From: Octopus vulgaris
Taxonomy: Eukaryota
DNA length: 64,000 bases
Assembly (NCBI GenBank): GCA_951406725.2
Contig: OX597814.1
Span: forward strand, 193,688,001 to 193,752,000
Direction of reading: 5' to 3'
Position 1 is the stretch's first letter. Every line of letters starts with the position of its first letter. A model generated the notes under the pieces. It saw nothing but the letters and a program-made list of their open reading frames with translations, made no database searches and was not told where the DNA came from. The position numbers were made by a program, and so were the translations under genes. Below are positions 3,459-39,910 of the stretch, one piece after another.

Positions 3459-3490
<32 letters not shown>

Positions 3491-3549
3491 GTATGTATGT
3501 ATATATGTATGTATTATGTATGTATATACATATATGCATATATATATAT

Positions 3550-3601
<52 letters not shown>

Positions 3602-3637
3602 GTATATATGTATGTATTATGTATGTATATACATATA

Positions 3638-3706
<69 letters not shown>

Positions 3707-3707
3707 T

Positions 3708-3990
3708 ATAGGGAGAATTCGCGAAAAAATAAACAAAAGACGAAGACAGGTGGTGTAGAAAACAAACATATGTATTAGTATAACGCTCGGGAATTGAAAA
3801 AGTCTTTTACGTTTCGAGCCTACGCTCTTCTACAGAAAGGCACACAGAAAGAAACAAGGAGAGAAAAAAAACGTGTGTAGTGGCTACTGATCTATCATGG
3901 CGACTGCCGGACAGAAGGGTCACGCAGGAGCGCGAAGAAGTAGGCGAGATAACAACGTAATAGTGATTCCAAAACGAAGGTGCGCATGGC

Positions 3991-3995
<5 letters not shown>
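3708..3995 (-). mobile_element. Penelope-like element 3' end / pLTR fragment (HHR family H2)
   Basis: Homologous to 19700-19877, 32258-32445 and 49028-49230; contains an HHR motif; flanked by (TA)n on both sides. Confidence 0.75.
3804..3839 (-). ncRNA. minimal type-I hammerhead ribozyme, A6U core variant
   Basis: Minus strand cttt-CTGTAGA-a-gagc(gtag)gctc-GAAACGTA-aaag: stem I cttt/aaag, stem II gagc/gctc, palindromic stem III ACGT. Confidence 0.65.
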
Positions 3996-4042
<47 letters not shown>

Positions 4043-4251
4043 CCACGATAGTTTTCAATAATACATTTCTAGCCTTAAGCCTGACGTAAGGAAAAAAAAC
4101 AAGAACTGAATACTAGTTTAATGGTTCTCAGTTGTTTGTAAATCAGCGATTCTTTTCACGGAACAGCGTTTTACATATGCCACATTAATATATTTTGCAT
4201 AATAGTAGTGGTAGTGGTTGCGGGTAGTAGTAGTGGTTGTGGTTGTGGTGG

Positions 4252-4317
<66 letters not shown>

Positions 4318-4318
4318 T

Positions 4319-4371
<53 letters not shown>

Positions 4372-4681
4372 TGTTGTTGTTGTAGTAGTAGTCCCAGTAG
4401 TATAGTGCAGTTATAATATATAATTAACCGGCATATAAATGAACTCCAACGAATGGATACCAAAACGAGAAAAAAAATGACAGCAAACAAGGTGCATTAT
4501 CCAAAAACTGATATTTATAGAATCTACGTTCCTTTAAAAGAGAGCGGAAGAGTCCTCATCCTGCTAGAATTATAGCACAAGACCATCACAATAGATCTTA
4601 ATTCATACATTCAGCACAACTATGACTGCATGCTACAGCTAGAATTCTACCAGCTCGGCACCTTAAATGATATGAATATAC

Positions 4682-5043
4682 TCTCTTTACTCTTTTAGTC
4701 TTTTACCTGTTTCAGTCATTTGACTGCGGCCATGCTGGAGCACCGCCTTTAGTCGAGCGAATCGACCCCCAGGTCTTATTCTTTGTAAGCCTAGTACTTA
4801 TTCTATCGGTCTCTTTTGCCGAACCGCTAAGTTACGGGGACGTAAACACACCAGCATCGGTTGTCAATATACATATATACGACGGGCTTCTTTCAGTTTC
4901 CATCAACCAAATCCACTCACAAGGCTTTGGTCGGCCCGAGGCTATAGTAGAAGACACTTGCCCAAGGTGCCACGCACTGGAACTGAACCCAGAATCATGT
5001 GGCTGGTAAGCAAGCTACTTACCACACAGCCACTCTTACGCCT
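4682..5043 (-). mobile_element. tRNA-derived SINE (family A)
   Basis: Head 'gagtggctgtgtggtaag...gggttcagttcc' (A/B boxes), CORE-like 'ccttgggcaagtgtctt', tail (gagtaaaa)n; many copies in the window. Confidence 0.9.
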
Positions 5044-6159
5044 AATTAGTGATGATAGTCTGCCTTGGTAGTTATTAAAATTCATTTATAAGTTTGGGTT
5101 TCGTGAGGGATGCGTGATCTGAGGTATAGCGCTTCGCAGCTCTTTGAACAACTCTTAACCACAAAATCCTTCCCAAGGGAGCTAAAAATATTAACCAAAA
5201 TGTCACTCTCTTTACACAAATACCAGTTAAAATGAAATTAAGAAAAAAGTAAGACATGTACTGCCGTCCTTACAAACCACAAATGAACTTCACGAAGTCT
5301 ATGAATTATATATAATTTTCGTTCCTTCTGTTACATGTCAGTTACATTTCATGTTTTTAATGAGTTACACAAAACATTTCACAAACAAACTGCGCACTGT
5401 GTTTTAGGCTAGGATGATTTATGTTTATTTGGTTTATTACCCGGTTTGCTTCAGAGTTTTTTTAAACAGACTAATTTGGCAACACCACAAGTATCTTCTT
5501 ACGTAGATCTTTGCATATTTTCCAGACAAATTGAAAAGACTGCAAAAAAAAAAAAAGAATAGGGAAAGAGAAAAACCCAGTGAAGGGAGGGGGGATGCGC
5601 AGAACAAACCGGCGGCAGTAATTTACAGCTGCTCTTTGCTAAATAGTCATACAATCCACTTAGATATTTACCTGACTGTCTCCATGTCTATCTTTCTTGG
5701 TATCTTCTGGATATATACACATGCACATACACACACATATTCATATATACATACATACATACATATATATATGTATACATACATACACACACAAGCGTAC
5801 ACATATGTATATTCATACATTCATATATATATATACACATACATATATTTATATGTATGTGTATATATATATATATATATATTTACACACATACACACAT
5901 TCACATATGTATATGTATATATATATAGAGAGAGAGGGAGATCGAGAGAGAGAGAGCTCCTCTATTACTAAAGTGAAGTATAATAGACTGAGATATTTGC
6001 TTTGTTGTATCCATATCTATCTTAGAATCTTCTGGGTGGGTGCATATGTTATGTTATGTTTGTTATGTTATGTTTTCCAGTTTCAGCTCTTGAGCTGTGG
6101 CCATGCTGGGGCACCGCCATTTGGTGTTGCTACATGATTTTGCCTCACGAATGCTTTTT

Positions 6160-8420: not shown

Positions 8421-9686
8421 CAGGGTGCGAAGGTATTTGAAGACATACCTTTTTTAGTTCATTGCTGCATTTTTTGCTAACTCTGTATAATCTTTGTTTC
8501 AGAAAATAATAATAGCAGACCATGAGCTTACTCAAGAAATGTATAGGCATACTGTTATTGTGGTTATAAAGGCTGAGCATAGCGATTTAGAAACATTTCG
8601 ACTTTTAAAAGTTGTCAGGTCTTTCGTCTACAAAGTTTGTAAGAGCAAGAGACTAAAAATGGAAACTTATCAACAGTATCAAAGCATAAAAAGCATCCTA
8701 AACGCTCTAAAATCAACAGGACACCTGAATTGATCCAGCAAGCTCAACAGATCATTGATTACAATCCCAGAAAGTCCATGAGGTCAATTGCAAAATATCG
8801 CCATGTGTCAGAAGGAACAGTCAGAAATGTTGGCCACGAAGACATCAGATATAAGTCTTATATGATGGAGAAAGGTCAATTTGTCAGAAAAAGGAAAAGA
8901 AAATCACTACATCAGATCTTAAAGTTTCTTTAAAAAACTAAAAATAAAAACAGCAGAAGATTTGATTTGGTTTTTCTCAAATGAGAAAAACTTCGATCAA
9001 GATCAAAAAGTTAACAGAAGACATGACAGATGGTTATGTGCAGATCCTTTGAAGTTCCAAGTGTTATGCATACAGAATTTCCTGCAACTGTCAAGGTTTT
9101 TAATGGTTGTCAGCAATGAAGGACATGTGATGCCGCCTTACTTCTTTCCACAAGGCCTTAGAGTTAACTCTGCCGCTTACATTTAGAGCTCGGAAATAAT
9201 TGTTAGGCTGTGGATAGACTGTGTATGCAATGGGAAGTCATATGTTCTTCAATGAAATTCTGCACTATCACACATGGCTCTAGTAACACAGGAATGGATG
9301 GCTGAAAATGTTCATGATCACATAACCCCTAACATTTGCCCTTCTAATTCCCCAGATCTCAATCCATTAGACTATTACACGTGAAGAGCTGTTGAGAGAG
9401 AGGTCAATGAACACACCTATAACACCAAAGATTCTTTGAAAGCTGCCATAGTCCGAGTAATGTCCAAAATGAACCAGGATCACTTTATTCGAGCATGTAC
9501 ACGATTTAGATCTCATATAGAAGCAGTTGTTGAAGCTGAAGGTGGCTTTATTGAATAACATTATAGAAATGTAGGTTTATTTTTACCCTCATAGCATTTT
9601 TTGGTAAATAAAGTTATTATCTAATACTATATATCTGTGTTTTTTTTATAAACATAAATCTGTCCTCAAATATCTTACGCACCCTG
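8421..9686 (+). mobile_element. decayed full-length Tc1/mariner-superfamily transposon, DD37D (maT) type
   Basis: TIRs cagggtgcg(t)aag(g/a)tatttga(a/g)gaca at both ends with TA TSD; fragments WFFSNEKNF, Q*NSALSH...SPDLNPLDYY with 37 residues between the last two catalytic positions; stops and frameshifts present. Confidence 0.9.
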
Positions 9687-9690
9687 TATA

Positions 9691-9738
<48 letters not shown>

Positions 9739-9761
9739 TATATACATACATGTATACATAC

Positions 9762-9852
<91 letters not shown>

Positions 9853-9891
9853 AAAAAAGGTTTGAAAATGCAATTTAAACGATGTTTATTT

Positions 9892-9932
9892 ACTTAACCG
9901 GTTTCACTCTTTGGTAAAAGATTGTCAAAAGT
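9892..9932 (-). ncRNA. minimal hammerhead ribozyme, U3-A8 variant (left arm)
   Basis: Exact reverse complement of 14139-14179. Confidence 0.65.
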
Positions 9933-9949
9933 TACATTTAAGGAAACAT

Positions 9950-10175
9950 TGAATAATATGGGTTCAAAAAAGTTTTTTACATAATTGTCACATTGAATAT
10001 TATGCATTCAAAAAGTTTTTTACATAATTGTCACATTGGATATTATGGGTTCAAAAAAAGTTTTTTACATAATTGTCACATTGAATATTATGCATTCAAA
10101 AAAGTTTTTTACATAATTGTCACATTGGATATTATGAATTCAAAAATGTTTTTTTATACATAATTGTCACATTAT
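9950..10175. repeat. ~43-bp minisatellite (about 5 copies) inside the PLE arm; mirror at ~13895-14120
   Basis: Unit aaagttttttacataattgtcacattg(a/g)atattatg..ttca with alternating variants. Confidence 0.9.
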
Positions 10176-11568
10176 TTGGGAAAATTTGGCAGAAAAGGAT
10201 AAAACAAATATATTATTGGGAATTGGTTGCGTTAATTATTGGTTGTCGCAAATTGTCACATTACATGTATATATATACAATCTTTGGTATATATATACAG
10301 CGTTTTGACAGCAAAAATTAAAATGGATTTTTTGTCCATCTCAGAATATTTTAAGTATGTTTTTACTGACCTGTTAGTATTAGCAGAAAGGCTGAACTGA
10401 GAGAACAGAAGTAGCCAATGTGGTGTATACTTCCCCTTTATGCATGAATGATTTTGGGGTTATCAGGAGGTTAGTATGCGGGTGTGAATAGATGTGTCCG
10501 TGCCTGCTGGTCAGACAGCGTCTGTTTGTCACACACATATATATACACACAAACACACACACACACAACAACACACACACACACACACATAGTATACAAA
10601 CACAAACCACATACAGACAACACACACACACACAGAACACACACACCCACACACAACGCACCCACATATATCACATATATACACAGCACACAAATATAAC
10701 ATGTATCTATATATAATATACACAGATATATAACACACATACACACACACACACACAACACACGCACACATACATACATAATATAAATATCACACAAATA
10801 CACCTAGCATATATATATATACACATACAATACACACATACAGCATGTAAGTAATATACATACACAATATATGCATGCAATATACATACGCAATACATAC
10901 ATACAATATATATATATATAGACAATGCATATACATATATACACATATACATATAAATAGTGTTTACATACACATACATAGATGTACCACATATACACAC
11001 AACACACATACATACAATGCATACACATACACGTACGCATACATATAATATATATATACACACACACACACATATAACATACATACACACACAATGCATA
11101 CATATATATACACGCAATGCATATACATGTATTCATGCACATATAGCACACCTACAATATACATATATACAGTGCACACATACACACAAATATATACACT
11201 TAATTGTACACGTACATATCCAATACACATACATACAATATACATATATACAATGCGCATGCAAATAATGTACATGTTTATACACACATAAACATGCAAA
11301 TAAATATACACACACACACATACACACACACACATATATATACACACATATATATATATATATACACACATACATACATACATACATGCACATACATATA
11401 TTTTTTCACACACATACACACACACATATATATATAAAAAATTCACCACCCCCCACACACACAAATTACAAACCTATAGCGTACACACTCAAATATATCT
11501 CTACATGCCGCACATACACACAAACAAAGTACTAACATATACACACATACCATGCATATACACACACA

Positions 11569-11618
<50 letters not shown>

Positions 11619-11794
11619 AAGATACATATGTAAATACATACACACGTATACAATGCTCACACACACACACACACACACATACACACACACCCGCACACAG
11701 TGCACACACACACACACACATATATACACACGTGCACACACACAAACACATACAACGCGCGCACACACACATATACACACACACGCACACAGTG

Positions 11795-11828
<34 letters not shown>

Positions 11829-11980
11829 ATGCATGCGTGTGCATGCCACGTATGTGTGTGGTCAATGCCCGCTAGTGTGTCCTATGCGTGCCGATGCGCG
11901 CATGTGCCCGCCCGCACGATATGCTGTGAGCGTGCGCGCGTCCCTGTGTGCTTGCTCTGGATGTGCTTCCAGGGGGTATG

Positions 11981-12200
11981 TTAGAGTATGTTTAGTTGTG
12001 GTCTGTATTTTTGAATAAGATTACTTTCCTTATTTATTCGTGTTTGGTCTGTGGTGTTGTCCGAGCATTGGTATAGTGGGAAGACTAAGAATTTGGGGGA
12101 CTTATTGTGTGCACAAAGGTCTAAGTGTCCACTTAGTGGTATCTGTCTTGTGGAGGGGTCCCTCAGTTGTTGTCGGTGAACTGTCATTCTGTCTCTGAGG
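11981..12200 (-). pseudogene. GIY-YIG endonuclease C-terminal fragment of a Penelope-like element
   Basis: NALRDRMTVHRQQLRDPSTRQIPLSGHLDLC...FPLYQC...RINKESNLIQKYRPQLN* fits the R..H..E..N pattern of PLE GIY-YIG domains. Confidence 0.85.
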
Positions 12201-12453
12201 GCATTGACCACACACATACGTGGCATGCACACGCATGCATTATATATATGTAGGTGATATATGTGTGTGTGTGTGTGTGTGCACTGTGTGCGTGTGTGTG
12301 TATATGTGTGTGTGCGCGCGTTGTATGTGTTTGTGTGTGTGCACGTGTGTATATATGTGTGTGTGTGTGTGCACTGTGTGCAGGTGTGTGTGTATGTGTG
12401 TGTGTGTGTGTGTGTGAGCATTGTATACGTGTGTATGTATTTACATATGTATC

Positions 12454-12500
<47 letters not shown>

Positions 12501-13298
12501 TGTGTGTGTATATGCATGGTATGTGTGTATATGTTAGTACTTTGTTTGTGTGTATGTGCGGCATGTAGAGATATATTTGAGTGTGTACGCTATAGGTTTG
12601 TAATTTGTGTGTGTGGGGGGGGGTGAATTTTTTATATATATATGTGTGTGTGTATGTGTGTGAAAAAATATATGTATGTGCATGTATGTATGTATGTATG
12701 TGTGTATATATATATATATATGTGTGTATATATATGTGTGTGTGTGTATGTGTGTGTGTGTATATTTATTTGCATGTTTATGTGTGTATAAACATGTACA
12801 TTATTTGCATGCGCATTGTATATATGTATATTGTATGTATGTGTATTGGATATGTACGTGTACAATTAAGTGTATATATTTGTGTGTATGTGTGCACTGT
12901 ATATATGTATATTGTAGGTGTGCTATATGTGCATGAATACATGTATATGCATTGCGTGTATATATATGTATGCATTGTGTGTGTATGTATGTTATATGTG
13001 TGTGTGTGTGTATATATATATTATATGTATGCGTACGTGTATGTGTATGCATTGTATGTATGTGTGTTGTGTGTATATGTGGTACATCTATGTATGTGTA
13101 TGTAAACACTATTTATATGTATATGTGTATATATGTATATGCATTGTCTATATATATATATATTGTATGTATGTATTGCGTATGTATATTGCATGCATAT
13201 ATTGTGTATGTATATTACTTACATGCTGTATGTGTGTATTGTATGTGTATATATATATATGCTAGGTGTATTTGTGTGATATTTATATTATGTATGTA

Positions 13299-13338
<40 letters not shown>

Positions 13339-14138
13339 TTATATATCTGTGTATATTATATATAGATACATGTTATATTTGTGTGCTGTGTATATATGTG
13401 ATATATGTGGGTGCGTTGTGTGTGGGTGTGTGTGTTCTGTGTGTGTGTGTGTTGTCTGTATGTGGTTTGTGTTTGTATACTATGTGTGTGTGTGTGTGTT
13501 GTTGTGTGTGTGTGTGTTTGTGTGTATATATATGTGTGTGACAAACAGACGCTGTCTGACCAGCAGGCACGGACACATCTATTCACACCCGCATACTAAC
13601 CTCCTGATAACCCCAAAATCATTCATGCATAAAGGGGAAGTATACACCACATTGGCTACTTCTGTTCTCTCAGTTCAGCCTTTCTGCTAATACTAACAGG
13701 TCAGTAAAAACATACTTAAAATATTCTGAGATGGACAAAAAATCCATTTTAATTTTTGCTGTCAAAACGCTGTATATATATACCAAAGATTGTATATATA
13801 TACATGTAATGTGACAATTTGCGACAACCAATAATTAACGCAACCAATTCCCAATAATATATTTGTTTTATCCTTTTCTGCCAAATTTTCCCAAATAATG
13901 TGACAATTATGTATAAAAAAACATTTTTGAATTCATAATATCCAATGTGACAATTATGTAAAAAACTTTTTTGAATGCATAATATTCAATGTGACAATTA
14001 TGTAAAAAACTTTTTTGAACCCATAATATCCAATGTGACAATTATGTAAAAAACTTTTTTGAATGCATAATATTCAATGTGACAATTATGTAAAAAACTT
14101 TTTTTGAACCCATATTATTCAATGTTTCCTTAAATGTA

Positions 14139-14179
14139 ACTTTTGACAATCTTTTACCAAAGAGTGAAACCGGTTAAGT
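14139..14179 (+). ncRNA. minimal hammerhead ribozyme, U3-A8 variant (right arm)
   Basis: actt-TTGACAA-tctttt(acca)aagagt-GAAACCGGTT-aagt: stem I actt/aagt, palindromic stem III ACCGGT, C3-G8 replaced by U3-A8. Confidence 0.65.
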
Positions 14180-14256
14180 AAATAAACATCGTTTAAATTG
14201 CATTTTCAAACCTTTTTTCTTATATAATCCCACTCGTGCGATACCCCACAACTCAA

Positions 14257-14312
<56 letters not shown>

Positions 14313-14944
14313 CATATATATATATATATATTTCGCTTTTGTATTTGGTCCGTGAGCTATAGGCGGCTAGCAAAGTTACTGTGTTGAATCTTTGGGTTAA
14401 ATCCCTTTAAGATGGTGTTCCAGCATGGAAGCAACTAAAAAAATATCCTTCTACACATTTTAAATTACTAAACTAGAATAATTAGTTTCTGCTCATTTAC
14501 GGGTTCTTATTGAATCATCATTTTTGTAGCTTAAAAATCTCGCTGATAAATTTTTTTAAGGTGTTAAGGAAAAATGACCCTGAAAGGGAATGATGGTGTG
14601 AGAAGGAATTTCAACCGTGGTCTGCTACCACAACAGCTCCTTCATAGGATCCAGTTAGCTCAAGACATCATCAGGAGGAACCACGTCCGGTTTCGGACCC
14701 TACTCCTCCAACGTTTTGACGTGGCGGCCCCCCGTCTTTCGGAGACGTCTTCAGCTCTGGTGCTTGGTGCATGTCTTCTTTCTTCTTCTTTCTTCTGTTC
14801 CCTGACATCTTCGATGTAGCGTCAGCGAGTGTCAGCGGGCGACTGACTGTCTTGTCAAATTGTTTTCCTTTAAAGGAAGATGAAATTGTTAGAAAGACAA
14901 GATTTCCATATTGCTTCAAGACATCCATTTTCCATCCGATCATG

Positions 14945-20320: not shown

Positions 20321-21343
20321 ATATAGGTAATGTGGAAGGCATCGTTTGGCTGGATGTACGATGTTGCAGTTCCTGGGATTATGCTCGACTACAAATGGAA
20401 TATTATATTTGCATTTTTATTTTCACCCTTAGCACGAGTGTTTCTCCGCAAGGTATATATTGGGATTTCTTTTGTTTTGGTTATGACATGATTCATTAAC
20501 CTTTGCAGGTATTTCTATTTTTGAAGAAATATATTCAGTTCTGCAAGTCGTTTCTTTTGTGTCTGTAACTATTGCGCATATTGAATGGTATGTTCCATTT
20601 TTATGCGAAGGGCAGCAAAATCTAAAATCTAAATACTGGTGTGTGTTTGTGTTCTTGTAATAGAAATCAGTTGTAAATGTCTAATTTTCTTTAATCATTA
20701 GAATATTCAGAAAAGGGACTTCCTTTTCATTCGTTTCCATAGTGAATTGGATTGATTCATGAATGCATTTTATTAATTTAAGGAACCATACTTTTATTCC
20801 AAAATATAAAACTGTCATCCAAGAGTTTTTTCCAGTTCCCAATTAAATAGGTTTGGAAATGATGATTAAGTAATTCTGGATAGGGTATAGATTTTTCTTC
20901 TATGATTGGTGTCGCAAACGGTGCGACTTTCGTCCCCATTACTGTGCCTTGTATTTGTAAATTATACTGGTTGTCAAAGAAGTAGTTATTTTCCAGTATA
21001 AACCGTAATCCTTCGAATATAGATTCTTTGGAGAATCTCTCCTGAATTCTTTGTGGGTATTTGTTCATCCAAATTTCTACTGCTTCTAATTCTGATCCAT
21101 GGGGGACATTTGTGTAGAACCTGGTTACATCAAAACTAACAAGGATTGTCTCTTTATCTAGCCTTTCTGGAATGTGGTTTAGAAAGTCCATGTCATCTTT
21201 GAAGAAACTAGGAACCAATTTGAATAAAGGTTTCAAAATTACGTGAAGCACGCTGCTAAATCGTTGGGAGCTACATGTTGGTCCTGGAACGATTAGCGTA
21301 ATTTTAAATCAGATCGTTTGGGAATCTTTACATATTTTTACAT

Positions 21344-21516
21344 AGGCGTAGGAGTGGCTGTGTGGTAAGTAGCTTGCTAACGAACCACATGATTCCAGGT
21401 TCAGTCCAACTGCATGACACCTTGGGCAAGTGTCTTCTACTATAGCCTCGGGCAGGACCAAAGCTTTGTGAGTGGATTTCGTAATCGGAAACTGAAAGAA
21501 GCCCGTCGTATATATG

Positions 21517-21568
<52 letters not shown>

Positions 21569-21572
21569 TGTG

Positions 21573-21619
<47 letters not shown>

Positions 21620-21804
21620 TTGTCCCCCAACATCGCTTGACAACCGATGCTGGTGTATTTACGTCCCCGTAACTTAGCGGTTCGGCAAAAGAGACCGATA
21701 GAATAAAGTACTAGGCTTACAAAGAATAAGTCCTGGGTCGATTTGCTCGACTAAAGGCAGTGCTCCAGCATGGCTACAGTCAAATGACTGAAACAAGTAA
21801 AAGA

Positions 21805-21805
<1 letters not shown>
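21344..21805 (+). mobile_element. SINE family A nested in the PLE
   Basis: Full head-to-tail match. Confidence 0.92.
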
Positions 21806-21866
<61 letters not shown>

Positions 21867-22493
21867 AGTATGGAAACCCTTTAATAATCTATTGATTTCT
21901 TTAGATTTATGGCTTTTTGAAAGTCCATAAAAGTTACTTGTTTTTACCTCAAAATCTAACACTTTTTTATTAAATCATTTTTTAATTTGTTCGTTAATTT
22001 ACCAATTTTATTTATTCGTATATCTGTACGGGTTTCTAATATTTTTTTTTTTGTAGAAATGTTGGTCACTTAGTTGTTCTAAGACCATTTCCTTGTAACG
22101 GGTTTTGTCCATTATGACAATGGCTCCTCCTTTGTCGGCGTTTTTAAATGGCTACAGAGGATTCTTTCTGTAGAGATTCCAATGCTTTTTGTTCTTCATT
22201 TCTAATGTTTGATTCGATATGTTTTTGTTTTTTTTAATATATCTTTTCTCCTTTATTTGTTTCGGTTATTAGACTGCGGCTATGCTGGGGCACCGCCTTG
22301 AAGAATTTATAGTCTAATGAATCGACACCAGTATTTATTTTATTTTTCCTAAGCCTGGTGCTTATTCTATCAACATCATTTGCCGAACCGCTAGGTTATG
22401 GGGATGTAAACACACACCAGCACCGGTTGTCAAGCGGTGGTGTGGGACAAACATAGACACAAACACACACATATATATGTATATATATATAAT

Positions 22494-37621: not shown

Positions 37622-39790
37622 AACTTAGAATAACTTAGAAAGGTTTTGGCCAGTATTGGCCCAGGCCATGTCTAACTTAATAGCACCACCTGGCGAAGTC
37701 TTTCAGTTCAGGATTTGGGCACCAAGGCCCATTCGAGCAGAGAGTTATTGTTTGCGGAGACATATCCGGGTGTGGGTGGTTTGTCCGGTACTGTTTGAAG
37801 GAATTTGTCCAAAGACTTCTTGAATTTTGTGTGGTCAGTTTCTTTTTTGACGTGTTCTGGTGTAATGTTGAAGAGAGCGGGTCCAATTGAGGTGAAATAG
37901 TTGTGCCGTATTGTCGTTATGTGATGCGATTTAGATTTTTGTTGTGGACAGATGGCACGTGGTCCAAGCCTTGGATGCATTTTGAAGGTGATGCCAACAT
38001 CATTCGGACAGTGCTGATGGAATATTTTCCACATCATACAGATAATGTAGCGTTCACGGCGTCGTTGGAGTGAATACAATTTCAGCTTCTCTAGTCTACC
38101 CCAGTAGTCAAGGTCTGACATGCCATCTATCTTTTTTGTGAATGACCTTTGGGGAGCTTCAATTCTCATAATATTTTGTTTTGTGTAGGGAGACCACAGT
38201 GGACAGCAGTATTCAAGGTGGGGTCGGGCAAAAGTGGAGAAGAGAAGGATAATAGCGTGGGAATCTCTCGACTGGAAGGTTCTGAGAATCCAGGAACACA
38301 TTCTGCGGGCCATGTCAACTTTGCTGCTTATATGTGTAGCCCAGCTTATGTTGTTGTCCACTGTTACTCCCAGGTCTCTGATGTTGTTGGATGCCATGAG
38401 AATTTCTCCAGAAGGAAGAGAGTATGGGAGTTTCAGAGCGTCCTCCCTTCCAAAGTGGATCAGTTCGAATTTGTCTTCATTTAGCAACATGTTATTCTTT
38501 TCCGCCCATTGGACAACAGCCAGTAGGTCTGACTGAAGGTTTATTCGGTCATCCACGCCATTGATGACCTTCTGGAGCTTGGAATCATCAGCGAAGGTTC
38601 TGATGTTACTGTGTTTGATGGTGTCAGTAATATCATTTATGTAGATGATGAAGAGAAGTGGGCCCAACACAGTGCCTTGTGGGACACCACTGCTGACTTT
38701 GGCTGGGCTGGATTTGACTCCTTCGACTACAACATGTTGGGTTCTGTTAGACAGGAAGCACTTGATCCACTGCAGCAGCTTTCCAGTGACACCAATATTG
38801 GACAGCTTTCTCAGAAGGATCTTATGATCAACCCTGTCAAAGGCCTTGCTGAAATCAAGGTAGATGACATCAGTGTTGGAACCTTCTCCCAAGGCTCTCA
38901 AAATGTCATCAAAATGATGCAGTAGCTGCGTCAGGCAATCTCTCCCATTACGGAATCCATGCTGGTTGGGGTTCAGCATATTATGACTCTCAAGGAAGTG
39001 AGTCATACGCGATCTCAGCACCCTCTCAAATACCTTGATGATATGAGAGGTGAGTGAGATTGGACGGTAATTCACGGCAAGCGATTTGTTTCCTTTTTTG
39101 AAAACTGGGACAACAGACTGGGATAGAAGGTCTTCTGGTATATATCCAGCATCCAGTGAGTTCCGCCACAGATTGGCTAGAGGGGGTGCAAGTTGGTTTT
39201 GACACATCTTCAAGACACAAGCAGGGAACCTATCGGGACCTACTGCTGAATTATGCTTCATTTCCTTTATTGCTGCTAAGACATCAGGAGCGCCAAATGT
39301 TATGTCCGATAAAGTGTATTGGGGAGTAACATCACTGATACAGCCCAGATCAGTCATATCAGGATTGCTGAAAACAGAGCAATATTGTTTCTGCAATATC
39401 TCTCCCATGGTTTTGGCATTGTCTTGAAGAGTACCATTTTCATCAATCAGAGGGCCAACAGTAGAACCAGTGACTCTGTGTTTTTTTGCAAATGAAAAGA
39501 ACACTTTGGGATTGAGTTTGATCTTCTCAATGGCCCAGGCCTCTTCAGCTCTTCGCTGACTATTGATGATAGACATCATGTTGTTTTGGAGTTTATGTTT
39601 TTTAATCTCTAGCGACGAGATGGCAGTCAGGTTGGTGTGTTGCTGCTGACAGTATTTCAGCATGTTGATCTTTTTGTTGATTCTTTTAATTTTCCTTATG
39701 AGAGATTTTCTATTTCTAGGGATTCGACACTTAGATTTGTTTGCAGATCTTAATGGGGTGTGTCTTGCACATATGTTCGTGATGAGCACA
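37622..39790 (-). mobile_element. 5'-truncated CR1/L2-group LINE
   Basis: RT ORF, short 3' UTR, tandem tail (ttctaagtta)2; (TA)n on both flanks. Confidence 0.92.
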
Positions 39791-39819
39791 TATATATATA
39801 TATATACGTGCACACACAC
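37708..39819 (-). CDS. non-LTR retrotransposon reverse transcriptase (ORF2, endonuclease missing)
   Basis: NYRPISLTS, QHGFR, YLDFSKAFDRV, GVPQGTVLGPLLF, FADD, DLGV motifs with no stops; the first ~10 codons are flanking microsatellite, so the start is not genuine. Confidence 0.93.
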   Translation of the reverse strand: MCVHVYIYIYVLITNICARHTPLRSANKSKCRIPRNRKSLIRKIKRINKKINMLKYCQQQHTNLTAISSLEIKKHKLQNNMMSIINSQRRAEEAWAIEKIKLNPKVFFSFAKKHRVTGSTVGPLIDENGTLQDNAKTMGEILQKQYCSVFSNPDMTDLGCISDVTPQYTLSDITFGAPDVLAAIKEMKHNSAVGPDRFPACVLKMCQNQLAPPLANLWRNSLDAGYIPEDLLSQSVVPVFKKGNKSLAVNYRPISLTSHIIKVFERVLRSRMTHFLESHNMLNPNQHGFRNGRDCLTQLLHHFDDILRALGEGSNTDVIYLDFSKAFDRVDHKILLRKLSNIGVTGKLLQWIKCFLSNRTQHVVVEGVKSSPAKVSSGVPQGTVLGPLLFIIYINDITDTIKHSNIRTFADDSKLQKVINGVDDRINLQSDLLAVVQWAEKNNMLLNEDKFELIHFGREDALKLPYSLPSGEILMASNNIRDLGVTVDNNISWATHISSKVDMARRMCSWILRTFQSRDSHAIILLFSTFARPHLEYCCPLWSPYTKQNIMRIEAPQRSFTKKIDGMSDLDYWGRLEKLKLYSLQRRRERYIICMMWKIFHQHCPNDVGITFKMHPRLGPRAICPQQKSKSHHITTIRHNYFTSIGPALFNITPEHVKKETDHTKFKKSLDKFLQTVPDKPPTPGYVSANNNSLLEWALVPKS

Positions 39820-39910
39820 ACATACATATATATATACAAGAACACAGAGAGATGTAAAAACAAGAAGAGAAATAGAAAGTCGTTAGACACATGTAACCTA
39901 CTGTTGTATG

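Follow-up and report, generated by a model that had tools for sequence, protein, structure and literature searches.

How does a 4.4-kb inverted repeat come to stand in an octopus chromosome, and what does its shape record about the element that left it there? The repeat occupies 9845..14263 of a 64,000-nucleotide stretch of Octopus vulgaris DNA (GenBank assembly GCA_951406725.2, contig OX597814.1, positions 193,688,001 to 193,752,000 of the forward strand; hereafter the window), and an initial annotation, made from the letters alone, had read it as an insertion of a Penelope-like element (PLE). Here, we find that the palindrome is a real and ordinary PLE insertion, of a published shape and known biology. 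Our account of its origin, which we hold to be probable, is that two head-to-head, 5'-truncated copies were laid down in a (TA)n tract through coupled priming at two sites, and that intact copies of the element encode, ahead of a joined reverse transcriptase and endonuclease (RT-EN), a helical protein from a first open reading frame (ORF1) that is likely fused to RT-EN by a -1 frameshift. What is new here is likely a two-ORF, probably frameshifting Neptune-like clade that carries an in vivo signature of coupled two-site priming.

Pairwise alignment of the two arms (9845-11870 and 12199-14226) gave 98.7% identity over ~2030 nt, with four substitutions (two of them at repeat edges) and small indels, chiefly repeat-length changes. 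Between the arms lies a unique 328-bp spacer (11871-12198), and a 37-bp tail (14227-14263) is confined to the right arm. These features are as first described, including the end of a GIY-YIG ORF in the spacer: the minus strand from 12199 to 11984 is a 100% match to residues 705-776 of the intact RT-EN ORF of a full-length copy. Compared with such a copy (L043, a real element that served as the reference for insertion anatomy), the palindrome resolves into two pieces. The longer 5'-truncated copy lies on the minus strand (9845..12201; reference 3469-5827), comprises the C-terminal GIY-YIG portion of the RT-EN frame, or ORF2 (11981..12201, 100% to aa 705-776), followed by a 2.1-kb 3' untranslated region (UTR), and stops at the upstream of two possible 3' ends, without the tail. 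The shorter, inverted copy lies on the plus strand (12199..14263; reference 3800-5864), consists of 3' UTR only, and reaches the downstream 3' end, with the tail. The spacer is the part of the longer copy that is absent from the shorter, and sequence comparison with the reference places the head-to-head junction at a 3-bp GGG/CCC microhomology (12199..12201). Both outer ends enter (TA)n, at tracts 9687..9850 on the left and 14263..14331 on the right (the latter from the sequence and a repeat scan), and the flanks on the two sides show no relation to each other.

A search of the octopus's own genome with the spacer returned 612 candidates, of which 40 were scored, and 39 other places among these were 100% identical to the query over 332 nt. 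All 39 were fetched as 33 ten-kb loci, giving, with the window, 34 insertions. This family of near-identical copies supports the initial view of a recent Penelope-like insertion in inverted arrangement, and in other copies the arm sequence is joined to a full RT-EN ORF. The same annotation had taken the arm for an unusually long, microsatellite-filled pseudo-long terminal repeat (pLTR), a view we abandon: the arm is a second 5'-truncated copy, and because the 2.1-kb CA/TA-rich 3' UTR occurs in 33 of the 33 other loci fetched, its microsatellite-filled sequence is normal for the family. Its 2-kb length is mid-range, as shorter arms run from 149 bp to ~3.5 kb across loci. Tandem pLTRs are present in L021, L039, L043, and L052. 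Head-to-head pairs of 5'-truncated copies make up 24 of the 34 insertions, window included, and this shape, with a tail that is often one-ended, has been published for PLEs (PMC8557442, PMC3846280). The nearest named relative of the RT-EN, among the matches listed, is an Octopus bimaculoides protein (83%), and the best 120 RT-EN homologues span 419-803 aa.

The evidence for coupled priming comes from the ends of these insertions. Across all of them, the outer 3' ends fall at only two positions, 37 nt apart, and every one enters (TA)n. Among the 23 palindromes with both ends in view, the tail sits on exactly one arm in 22, on both arms in one, and on neither in none, a pattern with P=2.7e-6 under independent choice of ends. 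The 22 one-tail loci carry it on the shorter arm in seven cases (the window among them) and on the longer in 14, the remaining pair having equal arms. Further, the two arms of a palindrome mostly agree in haplotype across 27 diagnostic columns: ranked among ~50 arms, the partner is the closest in 9/22 pairs, within the top three in 15/22, and at ranks 8-11 in four. The tail on exactly one arm and this haplotype sharing together suggest that the two target strands were primed in a coupled manner, at two (UA)n sites. In the read-through RNA, AUAUA stands at both end sites, once before the base of a stem and once in its loop, and the stem, whose 5' strand is carried by the tail, closes just before the ORF1 ATG of intact copies. 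This layout of AUAUA, stem, loop, and ATG is kept in five families, with a 7-bp stem that shows two compensatory changes and a folding z of -4.7 in the window family.

The joints between arms are blunt, show 1-7 bp of microhomology (3 bp at the window), or hold short inserts; these classes combine two analyses, as exact-match calling of microhomology is unreliable where copies diverge from the reference near the junction. Two of the inserts were copied from remote portions of the element (L024:3028-3526, 499 bp from RT; L046:4993-5025, 24 nt from the ORF junction), which suggests template jumps on intact RNA. Target-site duplications are unreadable, since all ends lie within (TA)n.

A simple series of steps would yield these patterns. 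Probably as a dimer, the state predicted for an anole PLE, the enzyme would cut both strands of a (TA)n tract. The reverse complement of (TA)n is again (TA)n, so both target 3' ends could anneal to (UA)n at either RNA site, with one protomer at each of the two sites 37 nt apart on the element RNA. Each of the two cDNAs would stop at a point of its own, and microhomology or a short template jump would then connect them. Much of this has an in vitro counterpart in PAc, a Poseidon element of Anolis carolinensis (PMC11167929), for which cutting and extension of both strands, an AT-rich target, and a predicted dimer are described, along with two RT start sites that bound a tail and lie in a stem-loop downstream of a hammerhead. 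PAc differs in that its single ORF contains the start sites, whereas the octopus sites shortly precede the ORF1 ATG, and the coupling of one start of each kind per insertion, seen in the octopus family, is not reported in the portions of that paper available to us.

Several observations weigh against this account and have to be set beside it. Ten of the 34 insertions have no inverted arm. The partner arm ranks 32-47 in 3/22 pairs (one of them cut by the fetch edge), and arms within pairs differ by 1-3%, largely through repeat slippage; given these differences and low-ranked partners, the template may have been one RNA or two sister RNAs, and shared haplotypes could likewise arise by gene conversion between arms. 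Moreover, PAc primed without homology to the cut DNA (PMC11167929), unlike the annealing proposed here, in which both octopus sites carry (UA)n matching the target. Finally, none of the contigs listed for four public runs showed the inversion junction, and the locus thus lacks read confirmation.

Two quite different origins of the inverted arm deserve comparison with coupled priming. For Penelope inversions in rotifers, fold-back self-priming has been proposed (PMC3846280), whereby a cDNA or antisense template would form a hairpin and be copied back. Such a route accounts for shared arm haplotypes, and at L040 the arms start within a few bases of each other, as it would have them. Yet in the seven of 22 one-tail loci where the shorter arm is tailed and the longer is not, window included, the tail could not have been obtained by back-copying of the longer arm, which makes RNA the likely source of both arms; the junctions that hold RNA pieces from elsewhere (499 bp in L024, 24 nt in L046) also tell against fold-back, which we regard as unlikely. 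The more trivial possibility, that the palindrome is a fold-back artefact of assembly, draws on the missing contig across the junction in the four runs. Public contigs that cover the spacer run on at 12201 into ordinary upstream endonuclease sequence, and the sole listed contig that seemed to hold the joint proved to be a normal element mapped across the duplicated arms. However, other animals would lack a polymorphic young insertion, and because the insertion is young, absence of its junction from public contigs is uninformative. The unrelated flanks are not what a fold-back artefact would give; the asymmetric tail, the differences between arms, and 23 other loci with the same architecture and different junctions argue in the same direction, making an artefact highly improbable.

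Coupled priming concerns how the element inserts, and the intact copies raise the question of what it encodes. In these copies, ORF1 (447 aa from its ATG) overlaps the 776-aa RT-EN frame at -1, and the overlap holds the site U_UUU_UUA (T TTT TTA in the ORF1 frame). The exact junction is kept in 19 of 29 readable copies, and the other ten differ in the length of a C or T run. Genome searches with ORF1 and two distant homologues led to six further families (seven in all), with RT-EN identities of 43-58% to the window family. A first survey of 21 loci found the -1 overlap, at T TTT TTA or T TTT TTT, in 16 (of the rest, two kept the site with a broken ORF2, two read through, and one had a broken ORF1), and a second found it with a U6 heptamer in 18 of 35. 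All seven resolved families have overlapping ORFs with an in-frame U6 heptamer of the form X XXY YYZ in the ORF1 frame and ORF2 open in -1. Outside the site, the codons TTT, TTA, and CAT are in the minority in these ORF1s. The dipeptide FL that matches the site also occurs in distant relatives: a profile search with ORF1 gave 926 clusters at E<=0.001; the tail was full-length in 78 of 155 proteins inspected, and 64 of these 78 have FL within 45 residues of the C-terminus (control windows, 2/78 and 8/78). Ahead of the first conserved motif of ORF2 there is no ATG kept across families (3/5 lack it), and in the window family one ATG overlaps the ORF1 stop. On the strength of these comparisons, -1 ribosomal frameshifting is the best reading of the ORF1/RT-EN junction, and one we consider quite probable. 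Most ribosomes would then make ORF1 alone, as a coiled-coil, RNA-binding-like structural protein, while a fraction would slip to give an ORF1-RT-EN fusion, like gag-pol.

Some results on the coding side also count against the combined account, i.e., the other 17 of 35 loci in the second survey (two fused, four broken, and 11 without ORF2 in reach), the failure to find any DNA context for outside ORF1 homologues when this was sought, and the absence of a predicted stimulator, taken up below. In addition, a fused ORF1-RT-EN protein was sought among longer candidates and none was found, which is a weak test.

Could RT-EN be reached without ribosomal slippage? If the TTTTTTAG at the ORF junction were a 3' splice acceptor, RT-EN would be made from spliced RNA with no frameshift, and this idea gains from the presence of TTTTTTAG in 6/7 families and from intron retention being known in PLEs (PMC8557442). 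The 29 of 29 readable genomic copies that are unspliced here speak against it weakly, as PLEs retain introns. Splicing is disfavoured chiefly because one large family reads T TTT TTT ACG, without the AG, because the residue after FL cannot start with G in 19 of the 64 homologues, and because the ORF1s of five families have no conserved phase-2 donor; we give it little credence. We are equally doubtful of termination-reinitiation, or of RNA polymerase slippage on the T run. Both would suit a junction without a stimulator structure, the former given the ATG that overlaps the ORF1 stop in the window family and the latter given T and C runs that vary in 10/29 copies and are evidently slippery for some polymerase or for assembly. 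Against reinitiation stands the poor conservation of the ORF2 ATG, which three of five families lack, and polymerase slippage would not require the heptamer register X XXY YYZ, which is nevertheless fixed in all seven families. Ribosomal frameshifting at the heptamer thus stays the reading we prefer.

A -1 frameshift usually needs a downstream stimulator. Folding downstream of the heptamer was no better than in shuffles in seven families (z -0.9 to +1.4, with pseudoknots and long-range pairing outside the model). What does appear constrained is the distance to the ORF1 stop. Among 71 ORF1s with FL, including five of our own families and two near-copies, the stop lies fewer than ten codons after the Leu in none, at exactly ten in 22, and at 11 in six, while a rough null (an off-frame of the window element) puts 60% of stops at fewer than ten codons. 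Beyond 12 codons, 16 of 40 stops lie at 20-21, 30-31, or 40, where 5.7 would be expected, although these bins were picked after seeing the data. On a quick ORF1 tree the distance classes form clusters (6, 5, and 3 changes), and a strict ten-codon periodicity is weakened by the last two families to be identified, in each of which the distance is 23 codons. Ten codons is about the length of one ribosome in eukaryotes. We therefore put forward, tentatively and at well below even odds, a structure-free -1 slip in a widespread, gag-pol-like clade of endonuclease-bearing PLEs, in which a ribosome terminating at the ORF1 stop would act as roadblock, ten codons or a queue of two to three ribosomes past U6A; if so, termination speed and ribosome load would tune RT-EN output. 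Ribosomes are reported to queue behind stop codons with ~27-nt spacing in Escherichia coli (PMC7544508), and stop position alters frameshifting in SARS-CoV-2, for which a different route is proposed (PMC8168617). A required C-terminal peptide of at least ten residues, or a pseudoknot or protein stimulator outside our models, would fit equally well.

The ORF1 protein itself is predicted to be all-helical with a basic low-complexity tail (AlphaFold predicted local distance difference test, pLDDT, 78; predicted template modelling score, pTM, 0.54). Its Atlas scores were <=0.78, no PDB fold matched at E<=0.001, no Pfam family exceeded the cut-off in 11 ORF1 members, and no similarity to Gag emerged from these fold and family searches. 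Additional ORF1-like groups (L152, L158, L160, L213, and L210-L212) have no RT-EN in the fetched stretch; they may be non-autonomous elements with ORF1 alone, or broken copies. Another two-ORF family, likewise very young (L165-L193, L198-L201, L206-L209, and G000:C23:4577421-4596541) has dozens of intact 454-aa ORF1 copies, among which are a five-unit tandem and inverted array and a few copies that read through as 1199-1214-aa fusions. It is the best candidate for bench work.

Where does the element belong? A PLE-type RT is indicated by a match to RVT_1 (E 6e-08 in the intact copy L043) and by a YLDD core, a DKG motif, and an RT4 motif, matching the PLE rows in Fig. S1 of Craig (PMC8557442). 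The C-terminal GIY-YIG with its CCHH motif was read from the sequence and compared by eye with Fig. S2 of the same work; three RT-EN homologues carry the name GIY-YIG nuclease, whereas Pfam scans gave no match to the GIY-YIG domain, and no solved structures related to ORF2 were found. Upstream of the GIY-YIG core lies a C-x4-C-x2-C linker, of a type also found in Nematis and Naiad. On these motifs, the element is likely a Neptune-like, endonuclease-bearing (EN+) PLE. As far as the source could be consulted, Neptune-clade EN+ PLEs share the C-terminal GIY-YIG with CCHH, the CX4CxxC linker, the Neptune-like RT4 motif, and (TA)n targeting, as well as partial tandems, an inverted 5'-truncated copy, and a 30-40-bp tail that is often one-ended (PMC8557442), all of which have counterparts here in the partial tandems (pLTR), the inverted 5'-truncated copy, the 37-bp tail, and the Neptune-type (TA)n bias. 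The difference lies in coding layout. Canonical EN+ PLEs are described there as single-ORF; in the octopus families RT and EN do share one ORF, but a conserved ORF1 of 350-500 aa overlaps it in the -1 frame.

In Athena, a frameshift lies between ORF1 and RT. Athena and Terminon, which are EN-deficient PLEs, also share with the octopus families a two-ORF layout and coiled-coil structural ORFs; they lack an endonuclease and are telomeric, whereas the octopus family is EN-bearing (PMC6431247). The same 2019 review divides PLEs into those with 'a single ORF including RT and EN, or two ORFs lacking EN'. Nearer in layout, Chlamys-2/5_cBra combines EN with a separate upstream ORF, but its EN is N-terminal, its ORF1 bears a zinc knuckle, and the accessible description mentions no frameshift; the killifish Neptune repeat.CL27 is EN+ with a 420-nt, non-overlapping ORF1 of no known similarity, likewise with no frameshift in the part of the account available (PMC12602865). 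The legend to Fig. 1 of Craig includes an ORF1 with a frameshift and pseudoknot, the clade so marked falling outside the part of the paper at hand (PMC8557442). The U UUU UUA heptamer linking an upstream ORF to an enzyme ORF is that of HIV-1 gag-pol, where a stem-loop acts as stimulator (PMC4373837), whereas none is predicted at the octopus junction. Pen1 of Adineta vaga likewise has its ORF and 3' pLTR set apart by a long non-coding spacer, but Pen1 spacers vary by copy and hold captured host DNA (PMC3846280), while the 2.1-kb microsatellite-rich UTR is common to 34/34 octopus insertions. In the full-text literature we found no description of a frameshifted ORF1 in C-terminal EN+ PLEs, although subscription papers, Repbase entries, or preprint supplements could hold one.

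The transposition cycle of PLEs is an open question, and the near-identical copies supply a countable in vivo rule, i.e., one of each start site per insertion, a self-complementary target, and a template-borne (UA)n, as the dimer model predicts. On the coding side, an uncharacterised ORF1 family, with a conserved frameshift signal, precedes Neptune-like RT-EN genes; if this is confirmed, the 'single ORF' description of canonical EN+ PLEs changes, such elements are being annotated without their first gene, and natural structure-free frameshift sites become available, in which stop-codon spacing can be tested.

Further features of the palindrome belong to the 3' UTR of the family. Its CA/TA low-complexity tract runs through the left arm at 10530..11820 (minus strand) and is mirrored at 12257-13540. 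The minisatellite is present in both arms, as noted initially (9946..10173 on the minus strand and 13897..14125 on the plus strand), with a period that Tandem Repeats Finder (TRF) sets at 44 rather than 43 and 5.1 copies. Also real is a 7-bp difference between arms; the segment, present in the right arm and first taken for an insertion, occurs in 15 other arms of the family, and loss from the left arm is the more likely reading of the aligned sequences. A proposed cruciform or double-stranded RNA with relevance to ADAR editing remains unsupported, as a search outside repeats in 59 arms showed no A>G excess (15 A>G vs 41 G>A). A putative minimal hammerhead-like motif with a U3-A8 core variant, as described in PMC4209133, and a palindromic helix III was found by pattern match at 14138..14179 (plus strand; mirror 9892-9933, minus strand); the same pattern matches in 4/5 families, with a weak helix II in the window family. 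An Rfam scan of the intact copy returned only sub-threshold microRNA matches to the CA/TA tract and no hammerhead. Beyond the palindrome, a GC-richer stretch at 14640-14760 resembles, by eye, another hammerhead-type core on the minus strand. Elsewhere in the family, at L043:2736-2997, a tandem duplication of ~260 bp ahead of the pLTR repeats the 5' junction together with the (TA)n and host bases that flank it.

Host exons were not recognised in the 32 scanned of the window's 60 longer ORFs, except for one possible piece: an ORF at 21312-21710 that matches tRNA-synt_1g (methionyl-tRNA synthetase; E 1.4e-05) and may be a host exon or a captured gene fragment. It lies between pieces of an older, broken PLE RT relative (20366-22148, minus strand; 28-45% to the ORF2 of the window family). 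A decayed Tc1/mariner-like transposase region (8421-9687, plus strand), with recognisable helix-turn-helix and DDE-like motifs in its translation, ends directly at the left (TA)n tract. Finally, a 724-aa open frame at 37711-39882 (minus strand) matches RVT_1 (E 4.3e-31), was unmatched by the PLE ORF2 query, and is likely a LINE (long interspersed nuclear element).

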